11,957 nucleotides of DNA from a virus. How positions within the stretch are numbered: position 1 is the first letter of the stretch; every line of letters starts with the position of its first letter. The DNA lies in the UHGV virus genome UHGV-0339357; one strand, 5' to 3'. Under the pieces are notes generated by a model. The model ran no database searches and was not told the origin of the DNA. It saw only the letters and a program-made list of their open reading frames with translations. Below are positions 1 through 11,957 of the stretch, in pieces. A program made the position numbers and the translations under genes.

Positions 1-2
1 CA

Positions 3-1203
<1,201 letters not shown>

Positions 1204-1207
<4 letters not shown>

Positions 1208-1440
1208 TTATTTTTCTCAACCAATGATTGAATATAATCATGTAGGTCTTTAGATGCTTTACCCCACTTATTTTGGTATTCATTTTTGAGATTAGCGCGT
1301 GATTGAGCTAATAAAACATCATTAGTTGGAGGTAAAGATTCTAATCGTTGAATCTGTCGTCCATAAATCATTGCAGCCATCTCGGATTCATAAATTAATC
1401 CTTTGAGATGTTCAAATTGATACCAAGAAATCATTTGCAT
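1204..1440 (-). CDS. Hypothetical protein, 78 aa (alternative start at 1434 gives 76 aa)
   Basis: Minus-strand ORF; AAGAGGA Shine-Dalgarno 4 nt upstream of ATG at 1440; a second in-frame ATG at 1434 overlaps the upstream ORF stop as ATGA. Confidence 0.55.
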
Positions 1441-1730
1441 TTATCCTCTTTTAAATCTGCACGATAATAACATATCATAGTTTTCTGGTCATGTACATAT
1501 CGTTTTACATCATTAAGCCAAATACGAAATTCCTGAGAATCTTCAAATGGCATACCTACCCAAGCTTTACCATCAATAACTTTAACTTGCCAAGATAGTT
1601 TAGCTTCGTCATATGACTTTATTTGCACAGGCCAATTAGGATGAACTGTTTCTTTCTTTACTTCTAGAGGCTTTGTCGAACAACCAACTAGAAGACCAAT
1701 AGATAATATTACTGCAGATAATTTAATCAT
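1431..1730 (-). CDS. Predicted outer-membrane lipoprotein, probable o-spanin (Rz1 equivalent), 99 aa
   Basis: N-terminal lipoprotein signal MIKLSAVILSIGLLVG|C with lipobox LVGC; lies immediately downstream of a type-II membrane protein ORF; position matches the T4 pseT.2 o-spanin as I recall it. Confidence 0.65.
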   Translation of the reverse strand: MIKLSAVILSIGLLVGCSTKPLEVKKETVHPNWPVQIKSYDEAKLSWQVKVIDGKAWVGMPFEDSQEFRIWLNDVKRYVHDQKTMICYYRADLKEDKCK

Positions 1731-2080
1731 TTAGAAAGGTCCTGGATGTCTTCTGCGAACTTGTTGAAGGAGTTGTTGATTTGTTTTTCAACCAATCCTG
1801 GCTTACGAGCCACCACATCCGCCTTCTTTGCATCTTTGCGCAGTTTTTCATTTTCACGCTCAATAGCAGCAATCGCCTCACGATTTTTATTATTCATCGC
1901 ATCAATATAATTATACTGAATTCGCAAATTATTTAATGCTAAGGCGTTTTCATTGGCCGTTTTTGTAATTTCTGCAACAGACGTTTCTAATCTTTCTACC
2001 TTATTTTTTAAAATAATAGATGTTCCGCCAAATGCTATTACAAGTAATAGCAATCCAGCTGTAAAATTACTTACATGCAT
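1727..2080 (-). CDS. Predicted inner-membrane protein with periplasmic coiled coil, probable i-spanin (Rz equivalent), 117 aa
   Basis: N-terminal hydrophobic helix AGLLLLVIAFGGTSIIL followed by a charged, heptad-like, coiled-coil-prone region; directly upstream of the lipoprotein ORF with ATGA overlap; position matches T4 pseT.3. Confidence 0.6.
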   Translation of the reverse strand: MHVSNFTAGLLLLVIAFGGTSIILKNKVERLETSVAEITKTANENALALNNLRIQYNYIDAMNNKNREAIAAIERENEKLRKDAKKADVVARKPGLVEKQINNSFNKFAEDIQDLSK

Positions 2081-2574
2081 AAAGTTTTAATAACCTCTAT
2101 AATATCGTCTTGAGAAAGACCGTTAATTAAAATATGATGTTCAGCCGGAGATTTAGAAATTTTAAAGCACGCCGCAACATCTTCTGCCATATCCGATGCG
2201 CTACGATTTGGATTACTAATTCCAAGACGATGCTTTCCTGTCAAAGGATTAACGATGATATAGCATTTGCAGCTATTGATATGAACATTAGGTTGAGTCT
2301 GATTAATAAACACTTCACAATCATACTTAGCGAGTTGATTTTCTAAAAAGACTTTCATCTCCTCAACCGCATCAGGAAGCATATCACGGGCTTGCTCAAG
2401 ACGACGATTTCGATATTCTTTAATGGTCGTTTTCCGCTTGACTTGCTTAGCTAAATCTTTCTTAAGATCGGTGATATATCCAACTCGACGATTTCCTTTA
2501 AATACAGAAATCCCATCTGTAGTATCACCGTATGCTTCAACGACCATCTCAGTAGTAATAAGCTGCAAATCCAT
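2071..2574 (-). CDS. alc: Alc protein (blocks transcription elongation on cytosine-containing DNA), 167 aa
   Basis: Position between rnlA and the spanin pair as in T4; translation from MDLQLITTEM matches my recollection of T4 Alc; GAGGGG Shine-Dalgarno 7 nt upstream of ATG at 2574. The ORF-track start at 2589 is too close to the SD to be used. Confidence 0.75.
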   Translation of the reverse strand: MDLQLITTEMVVEAYGDTTDGISVFKGNRRVGYITDLKKDLAKQVKRKTTIKEYRNRRLEQARDMLPDAVEEMKVFLENQLAKYDCEVFINQTQPNVHINSCKCYIIVNPLTGKHRLGISNPNRSASDMAEDVAACFKISKSPAEHHILINGLSQDDIIEVIKTLCM

Positions 2575-2606
2575 CATAAAGCCCCTCATGTTATGTCAGT
2601 AAGATT

Positions 2607-2636
2607 ATTATAACACAGCATAAGGGACTTGTAAAC
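2607..2636 (-). promoter_or_regulatory. Candidate T4-type early (sigma70) promoter upstream of alc
   Basis: Minus strand reads GTTTAC - 18 nt - TATAAT (with TGTG immediately upstream of the -10), the T4 early promoter pattern; lies in the rnlA-alc gap. Confidence 0.5.
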
Positions 2637-2639
2637 AGC

Positions 2640-4227
<1,588 letters not shown>

Positions 4228-4254
4228 AATAAAATGGGCCTTGCGGCCCACTCC
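4228..4254 (-). promoter_or_regulatory. Shine-Dalgarno + GC hairpin (GNRA loop) + U-run immediately upstream of the denA start
   Basis: Minus strand reads TAAGGAG-TGGGCC-GCAA-GGCCCA-TTTTATT-ATG. The 6-bp GC stem with GCAA tetraloop lies between AAGGAG and the denA ATG and is followed by a U-rich run; the nrdB stop TAA overlaps the SD. Confidence 0.5.
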
Positions 4255-5433
4255 TTAAAAATATTTTTTAAAACTCATCATAACTTTATCATCAACATCA
4301 TTATCAATCTGTGCTACAAGGTAAGATGACAGTTCTACTTCTTGCGGCGCGGATTGAACATTATCAGAATTAAGGTATTCACGAATCCAAGGATACGGAT
4401 GTTTAACCGGAGCATCGGTAATCGGGCATGGAAGACCACACTGTTTCATACGAGATACGGTTAAGTAATCAATAAAGCTCCACATGCTATTTGTATTTAA
4501 TCCAGGAACATCGCCATCTTTAAATAAATGAACTGCCCAATCTTTTTCTTGGCGGTTAACTTCCATGAAAATATCAACTGCTTCTTGTTCACACTCTTTG
4601 GCAATTTTAACCCATTCATCACCATCAGTACCGGATTGAAGTTGACGAATAATATATTGTGTACCTTTAAGATGAAGCTGCTCATCACGTGCAATAAATT
4701 TCATAATCTTCGCATTACCTTCCATGATTTCCATGTTCTTATGGAAGTTGAAAGTACATGCAAAGGATACATAAAAACGAATAGCTTCCAGAGCATTGAT
4801 AACGTGCAGACAGAGATAAAGCGACTTCATCAGGTCTCGTTTACATTCTTCCAAATGAGTGAGACTGTTTGAATATGCTTCTAAATCATATTCATTTTCA
4901 GCAAAATAACTAAAGTTTTCTTTGGCGTTTTCCCAAATACGTGTCTTGTCCAGAACATCATCATAATAACGACCAATAGATTCAGCACGTTTCATGATAG
5001 CTTTATCTAATACAATCTCATCAAATACCTTTGACGGATCAGTATAAAGATTTCGCATAATATGAGTGTATGAACGACTGTGAATAGTTTCACTAAAAGT
5101 CCATGTAGCAACCCATGTATCAAGGCTTGGGTCTGAAATCAATGACATAAGTACAGCAGACGGTGCACGACCCTGAATGCTATCCAGAAGTGATTGATAC
5201 TTCAGATTATTAGTAAAAATATTCTGCTGATATTGAGGAAGCTTATTAAACTGTGCAGCATCCATCATTAAGTTTACTTCTTCAGGACGCCAGAAAAATG
5301 ACAACTGCTTTTCGGTTAAATCTTCAAAAACTTTATGACGTTGAATATCATAACGCGCAATACCAAGACCTGAACCAAAAAACATAGGTTCTTTTAAAAC
5401 ATCAACTGGATTTGTATTAAAAACTGTGCTCAT
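4255..5433 (-). CDS. nrdB: Ribonucleotide reductase class Ia small (beta) subunit, 392 aa, uninterrupted
   Basis: Di-iron / tyrosyl-radical protein signatures (SRSYTHI, RDEQLH-type carboxylate-His motif); strong similarity to T4 NrdB as recalled; continuous ORF with no intron-like gap. Confidence 0.9.
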   Translation of the reverse strand: MSTVFNTNPVDVLKEPMFFGSGLGIARYDIQRHKVFEDLTEKQLSFFWRPEEVNLMMDAAQFNKLPQYQQNIFTNNLKYQSLLDSIQGRAPSAVLMSLISDPSLDTWVATWTFSETIHSRSYTHIMRNLYTDPSKVFDEIVLDKAIMKRAESIGRYYDDVLDKTRIWENAKENFSYFAENEYDLEAYSNSLTHLEECKRDLMKSLYLCLHVINALEAIRFYVSFACTFNFHKNMEIMEGNAKIMKFIARDEQLHLKGTQYIIRQLQSGTDGDEWVKIAKECEQEAVDIFMEVNRQEKDWAVHLFKDGDVPGLNTNSMWSFIDYLTVSRMKQCGLPCPITDAPVKHPYPWIREYLNSDNVQSAPQEVELSSYLVAQIDNDVDDKVMMSFKKYF

Positions 5434-5484
5434 AAATTTTCCGCTTAGTTAATAGTTGGTGACTCGTCCGTGAGTCAAATTATA

Positions 5485-7749
5485 TCATAATTTACAGGAT
5501 GAACAATCTTCAGCTTTTGGAGTTTCTATTTCATAATCATCAGTACCAGAACCGTCACGGGTATTATGATAATAGAAATTTTTTCCGCCAAAATACCAGA
5601 AATACAAAAGGTCATCAATCATTATTGACATTGGAACCTTGCCTTTAGGGAAGATTTGGGGGTCATAGTATGTATTCGCCGAAGCTGATTGACAAACCCA
5701 TTTCAGCATAATAGCTACCTGCGTAAGATAAGGTTTATTACCTTTCTTAGCTAATTTCCATGTATAATCATAAAGGTCTATGTTATGCTCAATATTGGGC
5801 ACGACTTGATTAAAGGAGCCCTCTTTTGATTCTTTAACAGAGACTGGTCCACGTGGAGGCTCGATACCGTTTGTACTGTTAGAAACTTGGGAAGATGACT
5901 CACATGGCATAAGTGCTGATAATGTGCTATTACGGATGCCAAAGAGCTTAAGGTCTTCCCGCAGCGACGACCAGTCACAAACGTATTTTGGAGCTGCGAT
6001 TTGGTCAATCTTTTTATTGTACCAGTCGATAGGTAATTCGCCTCGAGACCAACGAGTGTCTGAATAATATTCGCAAGGTCCTTTTTCTTTGGCGAGCTTA
6101 ATGGATGCTTTAATGAGTCCATACTGTAATCTCTCAAATAGTTCATGTGTTAAATCGTTAGCATCTTCATAAGAAGCAAAGTTACTTGCCAGCCAAGCTG
6201 CATAGTTGGTAACACCTACGCCAAGATTTCGACGCTTTTTAGCTTTTTCTGCTTCAGGAACCGGATATCCTTGGTAATCCAAAAGATTATCAAGAGCACG
6301 AACTTGAACTTCTGCCAATTCATTAATTTTATCTTGGTCTTGCCAGTCAAAATTATCTAATACGAATGCAGAGAGAGTACACAATCCAATTTCAGCATCA
6401 GGACTATTCACATCATTTGTTGGAATAGCAATTTCACAGCACAAGTTACTCTGACGAATAGGTGCCTTTTCACGAATAAACGGAGTATAGTTATTCGTAT
6501 TATCAATGAACTGTACATAAATCCTTGCTGTTCCTGAACGTTCAGTCATGAGCAATTCAAATAGTTCACGGGCTTTAATACGCTTTTTACGAATATTAGG
6601 GTCTTTTTCTGCTGCTTCGTATAATTCACGGAAACGGTCTTGGTCTTTAAAATAAGAATAATAAAGCTCTCCACCCATTTCATGCGGACTGAACAAAGTA
6701 ATGTAATCGTTCTTTCCGAATCGTTCCATCATCAAATCATTCAGCTGAACACCATAATCCATATGACGAATGCGGTTTTCTTCTACGCCTTTGTTATTTT
6801 TCAAAACGAGAAGATTTTCAACTTCCAAATGCCAAATAGGATAATAAGCAGTAGCAGCGCCGCCACGAATTCCACCCTGTGAACATGATTTAACAGCAGT
6901 CTGAAAATGTTTCCAAAAAGGAATAACACCAGTATGGCGTACTTCACCCATGCCAATCTTAGAACCTTCGGCACGAATCATACCAACGTTAATACCAATT
7001 CCAGCGCGTTTAGAGATATATTCAACAATCGAAGCGGAAGCCTTATTGATAGACTTCAATGAATCTCCTGCCTCAATAACAACGCATGAACTGAACTGTC
7101 GAGTCGGAGTACGGCAACCAGCCATAATAGGAGTTGGCAGTGAAATCTGTCGAGTAGATACTGCTTCATAAAAACGAATAACATGTTTTAATCTATCAAC
7201 AGGTTCATCTTGATGCAATGCCATTCCAATAGTCATAAATGCAAACTGTGGAGTTTCATAAATTTGACCAGTGGTTTTATCTTTAACTAGATATTTTTCT
7301 TTTAATTGCATCGCCCCGGAATAAGTAAATTCCATATCCCGTTCGTGCTTAATTTTTGATTCTAAAAATGTAATTTCTTCTGCTGAATATTTTGACAATA
7401 ATTCGGGGTCATATTTACCTTCATTTACACAGTAAGAAATATGGTCAATAAATGAACGTGGTTCATATTGCCCGTAAACATGCTTACGAAGAGCAAACAT
7501 TAAACAGCGTGCAGCTACGTATTGATAATCAGGCTCTTCAACTGAAATAGAATTCGCAGCAGCCTTAATGACAATAGTCTGAATGTCATCAGTGGTCATT
7601 CCATCACGGAGATATGATTTAATATTTTCATATAATTCATAAGGATCTACAGATGTTCCTTCAGCTGCCCAAGATAAAACTTTAATAATTTTTTGTGGAT
7701 CAAAGCTCTGAGAAACACCACTACTTTTGATAACATTAATTAATTGCAT
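5485..7749 (-). CDS. nrdA: Ribonucleotide reductase class Ia large (alpha) subunit, 754 aa
   Basis: Catalytic NLCCEI motif and C-terminal cysteine pair (CSSCKL) in the translation; 754 aa as in T4 NrdA; GAGGA Shine-Dalgarno 5 nt upstream of ATG at 7749. Confidence 0.9.
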   Translation of the reverse strand: MQLINVIKSSGVSQSFDPQKIIKVLSWAAEGTSVDPYELYENIKSYLRDGMTTDDIQTIVIKAAANSISVEEPDYQYVAARCLMFALRKHVYGQYEPRSFIDHISYCVNEGKYDPELLSKYSAEEITFLESKIKHERDMEFTYSGAMQLKEKYLVKDKTTGQIYETPQFAFMTIGMALHQDEPVDRLKHVIRFYEAVSTRQISLPTPIMAGCRTPTRQFSSCVVIEAGDSLKSINKASASIVEYISKRAGIGINVGMIRAEGSKIGMGEVRHTGVIPFWKHFQTAVKSCSQGGIRGGAATAYYPIWHLEVENLLVLKNNKGVEENRIRHMDYGVQLNDLMMERFGKNDYITLFSPHEMGGELYYSYFKDQDRFRELYEAAEKDPNIRKKRIKARELFELLMTERSGTARIYVQFIDNTNNYTPFIREKAPIRQSNLCCEIAIPTNDVNSPDAEIGLCTLSAFVLDNFDWQDQDKINELAEVQVRALDNLLDYQGYPVPEAEKAKKRRNLGVGVTNYAAWLASNFASYEDANDLTHELFERLQYGLIKASIKLAKEKGPCEYYSDTRWSRGELPIDWYNKKIDQIAAPKYVCDWSSLREDLKLFGIRNSTLSALMPCESSSQVSNSTNGIEPPRGPVSVKESKEGSFNQVVPNIEHNIDLYDYTWKLAKKGNKPYLTQVAIMLKWVCQSASANTYYDPQIFPKGKVPMSIMIDDLLYFWYFGGKNFYYHNTRDGSGTDDYEIETPKAEDCSSCKL

Positions 7750-8066
7750 AAGTCCTCAACTTGAAAATCGTCTTTAAACAATCGGTTAACTATATGAGCT
7801 ATTATATCACCATGACACGGCTTTGGTTTACATGTGCATCCTAGCCTCATTCCACGTAAAGGCTCTAAATGTGCTTTAGTTATTTCTCCGGATTTAATTC
7901 GACGTATAAAATCTTTTTTGAATAATTCAATGGCAGCCTCCCGGCTGCCAGCATCTTTACCGACGTAATTTCCCCAAAATGTACCACGGTGAATATTAAC
8001 ATCAAAGTCGGATTTATATTTATTCACTACCTGGCATAGACGGCCCGCGCGGTGATAATTCGTCAT
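7740..8066 (-). CDS. Hypothetical protein, 108 aa, with Cys/His-rich C-terminal motif (position of T4 nrdA.1)
   Basis: Minus-strand ORF with ATG start; contains [12 protein letters not shown]; its stop overlaps the nrdA start region; its first 47 nt overlap the upstream ORF. Confidence 0.55.
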
Positions 8067-8283
8067 ATTGTTTTTCCGTTAAAACAGTAATATCATAATA
8101 ACAGTCAGAAGAAATTTTAATGGTGGAAACTTTATTATCAAAATACTCACGGGTCATTTTATGAGTATAATATTTTTTACCATAAATGATAATAGGCTGA
8201 TTTGGTCCTGGAACTTCTAACTCGCTTGGGTTAGGAAGTGTAAAAAGAACAACGTCAGAAGTATCTTTAAATCGTAAAATCAT
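8020..8283 (-). CDS. Hypothetical protein, 87 aa (position of T4 nrdA.2)
   Basis: ORF-track start is TTG at 8295; an internal ATG at 8283 (MILRFKD...) has a GAGGA Shine-Dalgarno at the right spacing, 20 nt downstream of the td stop. Confidence 0.55.
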
Positions 8284-8303
8284 AAATCCTCGCAATAATA
8301 AAA

Positions 8304-9163
8304 TTATACCGCCATCTTTCCTTTAATTAGCGGGTGAGATACATAGTCGTTAAGAACAAAATTATGCGGCTTTGCGAATTGACTCAACCAAAATACCTGT
8401 GATTCTGTGTCCCATTCATCAAATTCATCTGGGAATTTTAATTGTAATTCGCATAAATCCATAGGTTCACGACGCAAAATTTCTTTACATTGTTCTACGT
8501 GATTCATATAGATATGAGTATTACCGCCAGAAAATATCAAATCTCCCGGAATATGATTACATATCTTAGCTACAATATGAACTAACGCAGCATATGATGC
8601 AATATTAAATGGAAGACCGAGGAAAACATCTACTGATCGTTGATACCACTGAAGGTCAAGGTATCCATTACGAACATTAAATTGATAGAACATATGACAA
8701 GGTGGTAATGCCATCTGCTTGAGTTCAGCTGGATTCCATGCTGAAACAATTTGACGCCTATCATTTGGCAGTTTTTTAATACGATCAATAACTTCTATAA
8801 TTTGGTCTACACCACCAAAATCACGCCACTGTTTTCCATAAATTGGACCAAGTTCACCGCTATGGTATCCTAAATCTTTTGCTTGATTTTCGTAATTTTC
8901 ATCCCAAACTGTTTTGCCTTGGATTAACGAATCATGTTGAATTAATCGCAAATCATTGACATTTGTGCTTCCCGATAAAAACCATATTAGCTCAGCAATG
9001 CAAGCTTTCCAGGCGAGCTTCTTAGTTGTTACTGCAGGAAAACCTTTAGTTAAATCCCAGCGTAATTTAGTACCGAACAAAGCAATTGTTCCTGTGCCTG
9101 TTCGGTCATCGGTTTTGTAGCCATTTTCCAGGATATCTTTAATTAAAAATTGGTATTGTTTCA

Positions 9164-9164
<1 letters not shown>
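8304..9164 (-). CDS. td: Thymidylate synthase, 286 aa, uninterrupted (no intron)
   Basis: Catalytic-cysteine motif [11 protein letters not shown] plus other ThyA-conserved blocks; 286 aa from MKQYQ; N-terminal two-thirds match my recollection of T4 TS while the C-terminal quarter differs; start ATG overlaps the upstream ORF stop (TAATG). Confidence 0.9.
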
Positions 9165-10189
<1,025 letters not shown>

Positions 10190-10193
<4 letters not shown>

Positions 10194-10549
10194 ATTACCT
10201 CCCACTGAAAGGGGCCAGAAGCAAATCCGCTATCTTTAATCATTTTAACTAAAGTTACCATTCCTCTGTTAACTGCTTGTGCGATTTCATCAAAAACTTC
10301 ATCACTATCATCGTAAAGGTCATTAAAAAGTTCTAATACATTCTTCTGAACTTTTAATTTACAGCCAACAAATTCGCCTACAGTAAATTCGTTTCCGCCA
10401 AATCCAGCGTAAAATGTAATTACACCTGTTAACTGTCTTTCACTAGAACATAGGTCGTGTGATAAATTAATATAAGCCGTCCCAGGTGCAGTTTTAAGTT
10501 GGCAACGAATACTTACTCGAGCAATTCCAGCTACACGAATGTCAGACAT
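10190..10549 (-). CDS. Hypothetical protein, 119 aa
   Basis: ATG start at 10549 preceded by a GAGGAAAA Shine-Dalgarno; the upstream ORF stop lies inside this SD region; uninterrupted ORF. Confidence 0.55.
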
Positions 10550-10559
10550 ATTATTTTCC

Positions 10560-10802
10560 TCAAACAGACTTTTTCACAATTTTCCAATCAGCTTTAAACT
10601 GCTCGACGTCAGAATGGTAAATCCAAAATCCTGCGCTTTCTCCATCCTCATAAAGAGGGCATCCATCACATTCATCTTCCCACCCCATATCGCGTAAAAG
10701 GTGTTCAGCTTTTTCAACAAGTTCAGAATCTTTACCGATGATATTAAAATACCATTTACCTCTAACTTCTGAATCTTTGATACTCTGACGTTGTAATCTC
10801 AT
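10560..10802 (-). CDS. Hypothetical protein, 80 aa
   Basis: ATG start at 10802 preceded by an AAGGAG Shine-Dalgarno at 7-nt spacing; uninterrupted ORF. Confidence 0.55.
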   Translation of the reverse strand: MRLQRQSIKDSEVRGKWYFNIIGKDSELVEKAEHLLRDMGWEDECDGCPLYEDGESAGFWIYHSDVEQFKADWKIVKKSV

Positions 10803-10812
10803 TTTATTCTCC

Positions 10813-10881
10813 TTAGCAAGCTTTAATCAAAAGATATAAACAGACCAACATAACTGCTGCCATAATATAAGGTGCGAACAT
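10813..10881 (-). CDS. Candidate small hydrophobic peptide, 22 aa (MFAPYIMAAVMLVCLYLLIKAC)
   Basis: Not in the ORF track (too short). ATG at 10881 with a GGAG Shine-Dalgarno 8 nt upstream; single predicted transmembrane-like segment; its stop TAA is embedded in the SD of the downstream 80-aa ORF; lies just downstream of a candidate early promoter. Confidence 0.35.
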   Translation of the reverse strand: MFAPYIMAAVMLVCLYLLIKAC

Positions 10882-10911
10882 TTTCTTTTCTCCATTAGTT
10901 TTGATAGGGTA

Positions 10912-10941
10912 ATAGTATCACACTACTACCCTGATGTAAAC
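10912..10941 (-). promoter_or_regulatory. Candidate T4-type early promoter
   Basis: Minus strand reads GTTTAC - 16/17 nt - GATACTAT (imperfect -10 with TG upstream), preceded by an A/T-rich stretch; located in the gap between the 128-aa ORF and the small peptide / 80-aa ORF. Confidence 0.4.
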
Positions 10942-11327
10942 TACTTTTTGAAAGTTTTTCGCAAAAGTTCAATGATTTCATCTACATTGTTTTCGTCAAC
11001 AATGCAGTGAATTTTTGTTACGCCAGAAACCTTGTCTTTGACTTCATCCTCTTCAGAAGTCGGTTCTTTATATTCGAGGAAACAATAAAACTCTTCTTCA
11101 CTAAGTTCAAAATAATCATCACCCATACCATCATCATTATAGATTTCACCATTAGCACAAATGATTTCGGTTACATAATCAAAGCCATCTAAACTTGATA
11201 TTGATTTAACTTCAAACCAACCGCCATTTTCTTGAATGATGCCGACCATACTAGCATTTGATGAACTAATATCAATGAAAGATTTAATACGATGTGGATT
11301 TAACTCGTATTTTTTGCCGATTTCCAT
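10941..11327 (-). CDS. Hypothetical acidic protein, 128 aa
   Basis: ORF-track start at 11342 lacks a Shine-Dalgarno; the second ATG at 11327 (MEIGKKY...) is preceded by GAGGAAAA at the correct spacing. Confidence 0.55.
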   Translation of the reverse strand: MEIGKKYELNPHRIKSFIDISSSNASMVGIIQENGGWFEVKSISSLDGFDYVTEIICANGEIYNDDGMGDDYFELSEEEFYCFLEYKEPTSEEDEVKDKVSGVTKIHCIVDENNVDEIIELLRKTFKK

Positions 11328-11372
11328 TTTGATTTTCCTCATTTTAATAGGAGCTTAATAGCCCCTTGATAA

Positions 11373-11576
11373 TTATTGTTCAATCAGTCCCATGTAAAAT
11401 TCTACGTCTTCAGCATCCATACCATCGCAGTATTCATTAGCCATAAACCGCTCAAGAACTTCTAAAGGACCTTCAATAACGATTTGAATACTCCAAAACT
11501 TAGAATCTTGTACACTTGTGATACTAAGTTCAGGATAACGATTACGAATAATTTCTTCAATTACAACTATCGGCAA
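11373..11576 (-). CDS. Questionable ORF, 67 aa, with no ATG start (TTG only) and no Shine-Dalgarno
   Basis: The ORF track initiates at TTG; the only in-frame ATG would give a 23-aa product; no purine-rich RBS upstream. Kept as low-confidence. Confidence 0.25.
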
Positions 11577-11605
11577 TACTGCTGATAATTAAAGAGGAAA
11601 ATAAT

Positions 11606-11716
11606 ATGGCTAAAGTTGATATTGACATCGTTGATTTTGAATATATTGAAGAAATTATTAGTTGTATAGTACCATGGAAGGACAAGGATGTAAACCGTTT
11701 TATGAAAAATTTTTGA
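11606..11716 (+). CDS. Candidate small plus-strand ORF, 36 aa (MAKVDIDIVDFEYIEEIISCIVPWKDKDVNRFMKNF)
   Basis: Strong Shine-Dalgarno AAAGAGGAAA with 8-nt spacing to ATG at 11606; stop TGA at 11714-11716 abuts the GC hairpin; opposite in orientation to all neighbouring genes. Confidence 0.35.
   Translation: MAKVDIDIVDFEYIEEIISCIVPWKDKDVNRFMKNF
11666..11695 (-). promoter_or_regulatory. Candidate early promoter downstream of the gene 32 terminator
   Basis: Minus strand reads GTTTAC - 18 nt - TACTAT, preceded by an A/T-rich tract immediately after the terminator; the -10 is imperfect. Confidence 0.3.
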
Positions 11717-11744
11717 AATAAAAAAGGGGACCTCTAGGGTCCCC
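11716..11744 (-). terminator. Rho-independent terminator downstream of gene 32
   Basis: Minus strand reads GGGGACCCTAGAGGTCCCC (7-8 bp GC-rich stem, short loop) followed by TTTTTTATTT, 22 nt after the gene 32 stop codon. Confidence 0.75.
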
Positions 11745-11766
11745 AATTAATTAGTAATATAATCTA

Positions 11767-11844
11767 TTAAAGGTCATTCAAAAGGTCATCCAGGTCTGTG
11801 TCATCAGCACTAGATGAACTGCCAGAGCTTGAGCTCATAAAATC
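11767..11844 (-). CDS. 32: 3'-terminal fragment of gene 32 (ssDNA-binding protein), last 25 codons plus stop; upstream part not contiguous on this strand
   Basis: Minus-strand translation [25 protein letters not shown], the acidic C-terminal tail of T4 gp32; the reading frame stays open upstream of 11845 but no longer encodes gp32-like sequence. Confidence 0.75.
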
Positions 11845-11957
11845 AAAAGCTGATAAAGTTGCTGATGATTTGGATGCATTCAATGTTGATGACTTCAATA
11901 CAAAAACTGAAGATGATTTTATGAGCTCAAGCTCTGGCAGTTCATCTAGTGCTGATG
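11802..11957. repeat. Perfect 43-bp inverted repeat (arms 11802-11844 and 11915-11957) separated by a 70-bp spacer
   Basis: 11915-11957 is the exact reverse complement of 11802-11844, verified base by base; the right arm ends at the window edge, so the repeat may be longer. Confidence 0.9.
11846..11957 (+). other. 32: Gene 32 internal coding segment in plus orientation ([37 protein letters not shown]), running off the window edge
   Basis: Plus-strand in-frame translation gives gp32-like C-terminal-domain sequence ending in the same [13 protein letters not shown] codons that occur on the minus strand at 11802-11844. Confidence 0.6.

Follow-up and report, generated by a model that had tools for sequence, protein, structure and literature searches.

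The end of the viral sequence UHGV-0339357 most likely represents a technical chimera, made during sequencing or assembly, and not the genome of a phage. Along the whole stretch of 11957 nt that was analysed (the window), two short pieces of DNA are switched to the opposite strand, one covering the start of frd.3 and the other lying inside gene 32, and no further strand-switched piece was found across the 11957 nt. Both fall in the final 400 nt of the window and the second reaches its last base; this restriction to the very end is one reason to favour an artefact. When the two pieces are un-flipped and the overlaps with their neighbours are merged, a colinear 592-nt sequence is obtained across 11300-11957 with the normal C-terminus of gp32 (KADKV...LLNDL*), and the sequence loss across the rearrangements is zero. 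An artefact is favoured also because un-flipping restores a normal gene in this way: all the native information is present, and only its orientation and the handling of overlaps are wrong.

The window is a segment of a Tequatrovirus (T4-like) genome, in which pseT, rnlA, denA, nrdB, nrdA, td, frd, frd.1-3 and the 3′ end of gene 32 are all encoded on the minus strand. Its closest match is Shigella phage Sf21, with 97.2% identity over 1-11845 and 99.7% over the last 3 kb. Over the same last 3 kb, identities to further relatives among the fetched loci are 99.86% (L018), 99.83% (L019) and 99.56% (L017/L031). The uneven identity to Sf21, about 97% over the whole window and 99.7% at its end, is ordinary T-even mosaicism. 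It is to be noted that none of the fetched genomes has identical copies of PseT, RnlA, NrdB, Td, Frd and others, and that NrdA is identical in hundreds of contigs.

If the end of the window is laid on the nearest relative, L018, oriented as the window, it resolves into four consecutive tiles, A to D (Table 1). Neighbouring tiles share 15, 7 and 44 nt, and they abut without any merging of these overlaps, alternate tiles being flipped; the jumps at the three junctions are 83, 91 and 68 nt. The two flipped tiles match L018 with 100% identity. A derivation of the tiles from different strains would have pointed to a chimera of a mixed population. Exact copies of B, C and D occur in L017/L031, and of A, B and D in L018/L019; judged from these sequences, ordinary mosaicism would suffice to explain such a distribution among strains.

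Table 1. Features at the end of the window, in order of position; tile coordinates on the reference are those of L018, oriented as the window.
Feature	Position in window	Strand	Position and orientation on L018	Length	Remarks
Tile A			up to 6195, forward	not defined	
frd.3 body	11373-11561	minus			flip of tile B separates it from its ribosome-binding site and start codon; Frd.3 annotated in Sf21 and RB32
Overlap of tiles A and B	11547-11561			15 nt	inverted duplication with 11645-11659
Junction J1a	11561/11562				microhomology 0 nt
Tile B	11562-11659	plus	6278 down to 6181, reverse	98 nt	flipped; first 17 codons of frd.3 and its ribosome-binding site
Partner of the 15-nt inverted duplication	11645-11659				
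Junction J1b	11659/11660				microhomology 1 nt
Overlap of tiles B and C (AGTTGTA)	11660-11666			7 nt	inverted duplication with 11562-11568 (TACAACT)
Tile C			6272-6457, forward	186 nt	
Gene 32 intrinsic terminator	11726-11744	minus			GGGGACC-CTAGA-GGTCCCC, then T run; intact, native orientation, between both events
Gene 32 3′ end (ssDNA-binding protein gp32)	11767-11845	minus			native orientation; last 26 codons and stop TAA (11767-11769); right part of tile C
Left arm of perfect inverted repeat	11802-11845			44 nt	the 44 nt of genome common to tiles C and D
Junction J2	11845/11846				forward reference ends, reverse complement begins from 68 nt further on; blunt, microhomology 0 nt
Spacer	11846-11913			68 nt	gene 32 stretch due after 11845, single copy, flipped
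Tile D	11846-11957	plus	6525 down to 6414, reverse	at least 112 nt	flipped gene 32 codons 255-291 (KADKV...SSSSAD), sense on plus strand
Right arm of perfect inverted repeat	11914-11957			44 nt	final base is the last base of the window

The flip in gene 32 is considered first. An earlier note on this DNA, made from the letters alone, had described a perfect inverted repeat at the window edge, and the repeat is perfect and real; its arms are however 44 nt and not 43 nt long, with 100% complementarity, and by coordinates they stand 68 nt apart and not 70 nt. Exact inverted repeats of at least 14 nt occur just three times in the whole 11957-nt window, and by simple counting, which is our own arithmetic, a perfect 44-nt one is expected by chance about 1e-19 times; with only three exact ones of at least 14 nt in the window, the 44-nt repeat is not a product of chance. 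The same note had read the minus strand from 11767 as the C-terminal tail of gp32, the plus strand past the breakpoint as the gp32 sequence that should precede this tail, and the spacer as the next stretch of gene 32 in flipped form, so that the window would follow one strand up to the breakpoint and the other after it. This structural reading was borne out. The minus strand at 11767-11845 translates to the gp32 tail, of which the note gave 24 residues, and is 100% identical to and colinear with Sf21 gp233, annotated as ‘single-stranded DNA binding protein, similar to T4 gp32’. On the plus strand, 11846-11956 gives 37 residues of gp32. Alignment with Sf21, RB32 and L018 places the spacer in gene 32 just where the reading required it. 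The window is colinear with the reference up to 11845, with 11700-11845 colinear in Sf21, RB32 and all the other relatives, and changes strand at 11846; from there, 11846-11957 reads in reverse complement the 68 nt of gene 32 that should come next, together with the 44 nt that come before. Tile D matches the flipped references at 112 of 112 positions in RB32 and in L018, and at 111 of 112 in Sf21.

As a consequence of the flip, the gene 32 reading frame of the window enters antisense sequence after 26 native codons, and the rest of the gene lies beyond the window. In T4, gene 32 cannot be dispensed with. The flip breaks the normal link to the C-terminal acidic domain of gp32 and would inactivate an essential gene, which is a further argument for an artefact. 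The gene 32 terminator between the two events is left colinear with the references, and one such site was found in the window against 0.1 expected. As a separate observation, the flip lands exactly on the K255 codon boundary, 49 codons from the end of the stop codon and approximately at the start of the acidic C-terminal (A) domain of gp32; the chance to hit a codon boundary is one in three.

A single breakpoint inside gene 32, as the earlier note had it, does not describe the end of the window, since a second private flip, which that note had missed, lies 185 nt upstream at 11562-11659. Because of this second flip, the feature must be regarded as a chain of mis-oriented overlapping tiles and not as one breakpoint in gene 32. 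In reverse complement, L018, L019 and Sf21 all match tile B with 100% identity, and its flip takes away the translation start of frd.3. The 15-nt and 7-nt inverted duplications at the two ends of tile B are missing from un-flipped genomes; the event adds 22 nt to the window relative to the reference and also gives a spurious 36-aa ORF on the plus strand at 11606-11716. The order of the four points on the reference, 6181 < 6195 < 6272 < 6278, is that of a path which leaves one strand, lands nearby on the opposite strand, copies back and returns, as in the four-point model of template switching. A one-piece megablast match suggested at one time that RB32, RB33 and T6 share the orientation of the window in frd.3; direct blast shows RB32 in the opposite orientation, the aligner having pushed through the flip, and this candidate was rejected. 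A 15-nt exact ‘inverted repeat’ between 10547-10561 and 11594-11608 is merely a translation-initiation sequence, GAGGAAAATAATATG, shared by the gene for a 119-aa protein (10190-10549) and frd.3. The two copies are inverted only through the flip of tile B, and the pair would be a direct repeat in normal genomes.

Is this arrangement found in any other phage? Among the 502 phage records that match 11700-11957, none covers even 80% of it in one place, and among the matches listed every alignment ends at 11845. Likewise, none of the 692 phage records matching 11535-11685 shares the state of the window in the orientation of tile B. Junction k-mers are absent from all 32 loci fetched through exact-protein look-up, including L018, L019, L017/L031 and Sf21, all of which encode full-length gp32 and Frd.3. 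Exact scans for J2 and J1a gave zero hits in viral, metagenome and genome contig collections. Exact-protein look-ups of the rearrangement-specific ORFs (36 aa on the plus strand and 43 aa on the minus strand) and of frd.2 of the window returned no record, and those of NrdA, Frd, the 119-aa protein and PseT led to normal genomes or contigs only. An artefact is favoured because the junctions are private to this sequence, even in comparison with strains that are 99.8% identical.

What kind of event can make such joins? The microhomology at J1a, J1b and J2 is 0, 1 and 0 nt, respectively. When blunt strand-switch joins were simulated on the same locus, the probability of 0 nt was 0.53 and that of 1 nt was 0.29, so that the observed values are at chance level. 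Within 20 nt on either side of the breakpoint pairs, the longest natural inverted repeat in the un-rearranged genome measures 5 nt. The mean under the null is 5.2, and an inverted match of 5 nt is reached by about 300 of 400 random site pairs. Because both microhomology and inverted matches are at chance level, the breakpoints resemble ends of pieces rather than sites where a 3′ end has annealed. The joins bear on the choice that the earlier note had left between a genuine rearrangement and a fold-back or template-switch chimera. The chimera is favoured by the private junction, its place at the window end and the destruction of an essential gene; a template switch by polymerase is unsupported, given the 0, 1 and 0 nt of microhomology and the lack of a natural inverted repeat at the switch points.

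Local inverted chimeras and fold-backs have been documented as technical artefacts (PMC1855051; PMC12870357; PMC10908179), and this too speaks for an artefact here. In multiple displacement amplification (MDA), chimeras are mostly intramolecular events, and inverted ones complicate assemblies from amplified DNA (Lasken & Stockwell 2007, PMC1855051). The window resembles them in that the second segment is inverted and the segments are very close (<10 kb; jumps of 83, 91 and 68 nt). On the other hand, proximal inverted MDA junctions have a priming complementarity of at least 2 bp in 93.5% of cases (PMC1855051), unlike the 0, 1 and 0 nt in the window; with none of three junctions having complementarity of at least 2 bp, MDA mispriming is disfavoured. 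Fold-back artefact reads in long-read sequencing have a second alignment within 200 bp on the opposite strand, and they are ascribed to library preparation (Heinz, Meyerson & Li 2026, PMC12870357). The opposite strand is likewise reached within 200 bp in the window (68 nt at J2 and 83 nt at J1a), and J2 is a fold-back by that definition. However, the window lacks the error pattern of long reads, its flipped tiles being 100% identical to relatives, and the event at frd.3 switches back to the forward strand, unlike a single fold-back. The PDSM model explains chimeras from library preparation by inverted repeats or palindromes already present in the genome (PMC10908179). The window has in common with such chimeras that the original strand is followed by the inverted complement of neighbouring sequence, and differs from them in that its breakpoints have no natural inverted repeats beyond chance.

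Replicative events in living cells offer another comparison. Ripley reportedly proposed a quasipalindrome model for T4 rII, and a four-point template-switch model is said to come from Löytynoja and Goldman. FoSTeS/MMBIR is a form of replicative switching, and inversions with flanking inverted duplications are known in Drosophila. The event at frd.3 is like a four-point template switch, leaving its strand, landing ahead on the other strand, copying back past the point of departure and returning, and its product, an inverted segment flanked by inverted duplications, is the one expected from staggered breaks or template switches. In contrast to replicative template switches, neither microhomology nor a quasipalindrome is found at the switch points, there is no population support, and one of the events hits an essential gene. 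The features of the joins argue against classic MDA mispriming, against PDSM or sonication, and against in-vivo replicative switching at quasipalindromes. Two simpler schemes were rejected as well. Random ligation of sheared fragments would have to bring together four consecutive pieces from one locus of about 350 nt in a genome of about 168 kb, which would be vanishingly unlikely unless the process were local. Read-through from a template to its complement, or around a hairpin tip, does not account for the whole structure, as the centre is flipped and not colinear, and as the event at frd.3 returns to the forward strand.

How, then, might a technical chimera of this form arise? The last ~400 nt consist of four overlapping tiles of normal T4-like sequence, each of the size of a read or a fragment, which were linked end to end without merging of their overlaps and with B and D in the wrong orientation. 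The ‘44-nt inverted repeat’ is nothing else than the overlap of C and D, and the ‘spacer’ the portion of D that extends past C. A join from forward to reverse has the geometry of an inward-facing read pair with a short insert or, equivalently, that of a duplex end whose complementary strand has been linked through its 5′ end to the recessed 3′ end. Probably, a few chimeric molecules or mis-oriented reads entered the consensus at a thinly covered contig end; the end of the window may be the end of the contig, and the sequence might stop at the point where the path re-enters sequence that has already been used. As for the route, chances are about even that blunt joining or an informatic mis-join was responsible, and strand switching by a polymerase in vitro is a possible but less likely one. 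Some points weigh against an artefact. The two best-described physical mechanisms, proximal inverted MDA and PDSM or sonication, do not fit well. Three junctions per 400 nt need a multiply chimeric molecule or several mis-joins. In addition, a real inversion by staggered breaks would likewise leave flanking inverted duplications and lose no sequence.

This last point leads to the alternative that survives best, namely a genuine complex rearrangement in phage DNA, in which two short segments, 76 nt in frd.3 and its upstream region and at least 68 nt in gene 32, were turned round in vivo, with inverted duplications left on the flanks of each. Possible routes are staggered breaks followed by fill-in and re-joining, or serial replicative strand switches of the four-point or FoSTeS/MMBIR-like type. 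A genome of this kind would lack the normal C-terminal domain of gp32 and would therefore be defective, surviving only as a passenger wherever co-infecting wild-type phage complements it. The event at frd.3 is closed, in the sense that both junctions are present and that the forward strand is resumed 6 nt before the first landing point, and its layout is the one expected from a staggered-break inversion or from a replication event with two switches. The two events are alike and only 185 nt apart, as in clustered complex rearrangements, and no sequence was lost. frd.3 is moreover dispensable in T4. All this would agree with a genuine rearrangement, and still we regard it as improbable: it is private when compared with more than 500 related genomes and with near-identical strains, it disrupts an essential gene, its microhomology of 0, 1 and 0 nt and the lack of an inverted repeat at the breakpoints are atypical for replicative switching, and both events are confined to the outermost part of the window, whose end cuts the second one off exactly. 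The particular form in which both flips are real and stem from one complex event in a replicating T4-like genome, by serial strand switches or by staggered-break re-joining without microhomology, the gene-32-defective genome being kept by co-infection, has a slim chance of being right. If it were true, it would be a natural case of clustered, blunt rearrangements with inverted duplications in a phage that normally suppresses events of this kind by its own ssDNA-binding protein, and an unusual, microhomology-independent complex inversion inside an essential T4-like replication gene; no finding requires this.

The other explanations can be given almost no weight. T4-like phage genomes are linear, circularly permuted and terminally redundant, without closed ends. 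A natural terminal hairpin or palindromic genome end, such as the covalently closed telomere of N15-type phages, read around its tip, would explain why a perfect 44-nt inverted repeat stands exactly at the end of the sequence, but is extremely unlikely, because read-through of a tip predicts colinearity up to the centre of symmetry where a non-palindromic 68-nt piece of adjacent gene 32 is found flipped instead, because every related genome has this DNA in its interior and colinear, because T4-like phages have no such ends, and because the event at frd.3 is left unexplained. Equally far-fetched is a programmed switch operated by a site-specific invertase of the Gin/Hin/Cin type that flips the start region of frd.3 and the gene 32 segment: the frd.3 piece is indeed short, carries a ribosome-binding site and a start codon and is bounded by inverted repeats in the window, whereas these repeats are absent from the un-flipped allele and were created by the rearrangement, which made the window 22 nt longer, the flipped state occurs in none of 692 genomes, the second event lies within essential coding sequence, and the annotation of Sf21 shows no invertase in the corresponding region.

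If the end of the window is an artefact, as we favour, annotation should be preceded by trimming of the sequence at about 11561, or at the least at 11845. Left untrimmed, it yields ORFs that are spurious and makes gp32 look truncated and frd.3 broken when they are not. The end of the window would also serve as a worked example of a contig-end signature usable for screening, composed of overlapping tiles in alternating orientation, blunt joins and a gene that is restored on un-flipping.

Some minor observations concern the surroundings of gene 32. The region of its terminator (11689-11792) matches the plasmid pCoo (NC_007635), AJ297913, Klebsiella pneumoniae CP017779 and the chromosome of E. 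coli BE104 with 97% identity, in two places per record, and in pCoo one terminator copy lies about 300 bp from aph(3′)-IIIa. Presumably these matches are engineered cassettes of the Omega interposon type, which have T4 gene 32 terminators at their ends. Plasmid and E. coli collections were rejected as a source of the sequence, as the gene 32 terminator is the only match there and apparently belongs to engineered cassettes. For near-identical phages, metagenome and Logan contigs frequently have an end close to the region of the flips: the start of L019 is 124 nt upstream of gene 32, and both L020 and L021 stop between frd.1 and frd.2. An extra ORF of 210 aa, with no Pfam hit, is present in some relatives between genes 59 and 32, the interval that segG occupies in T4. 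These observations suggest a strain-variable zone near gene 32 in which assemblies tend to break.
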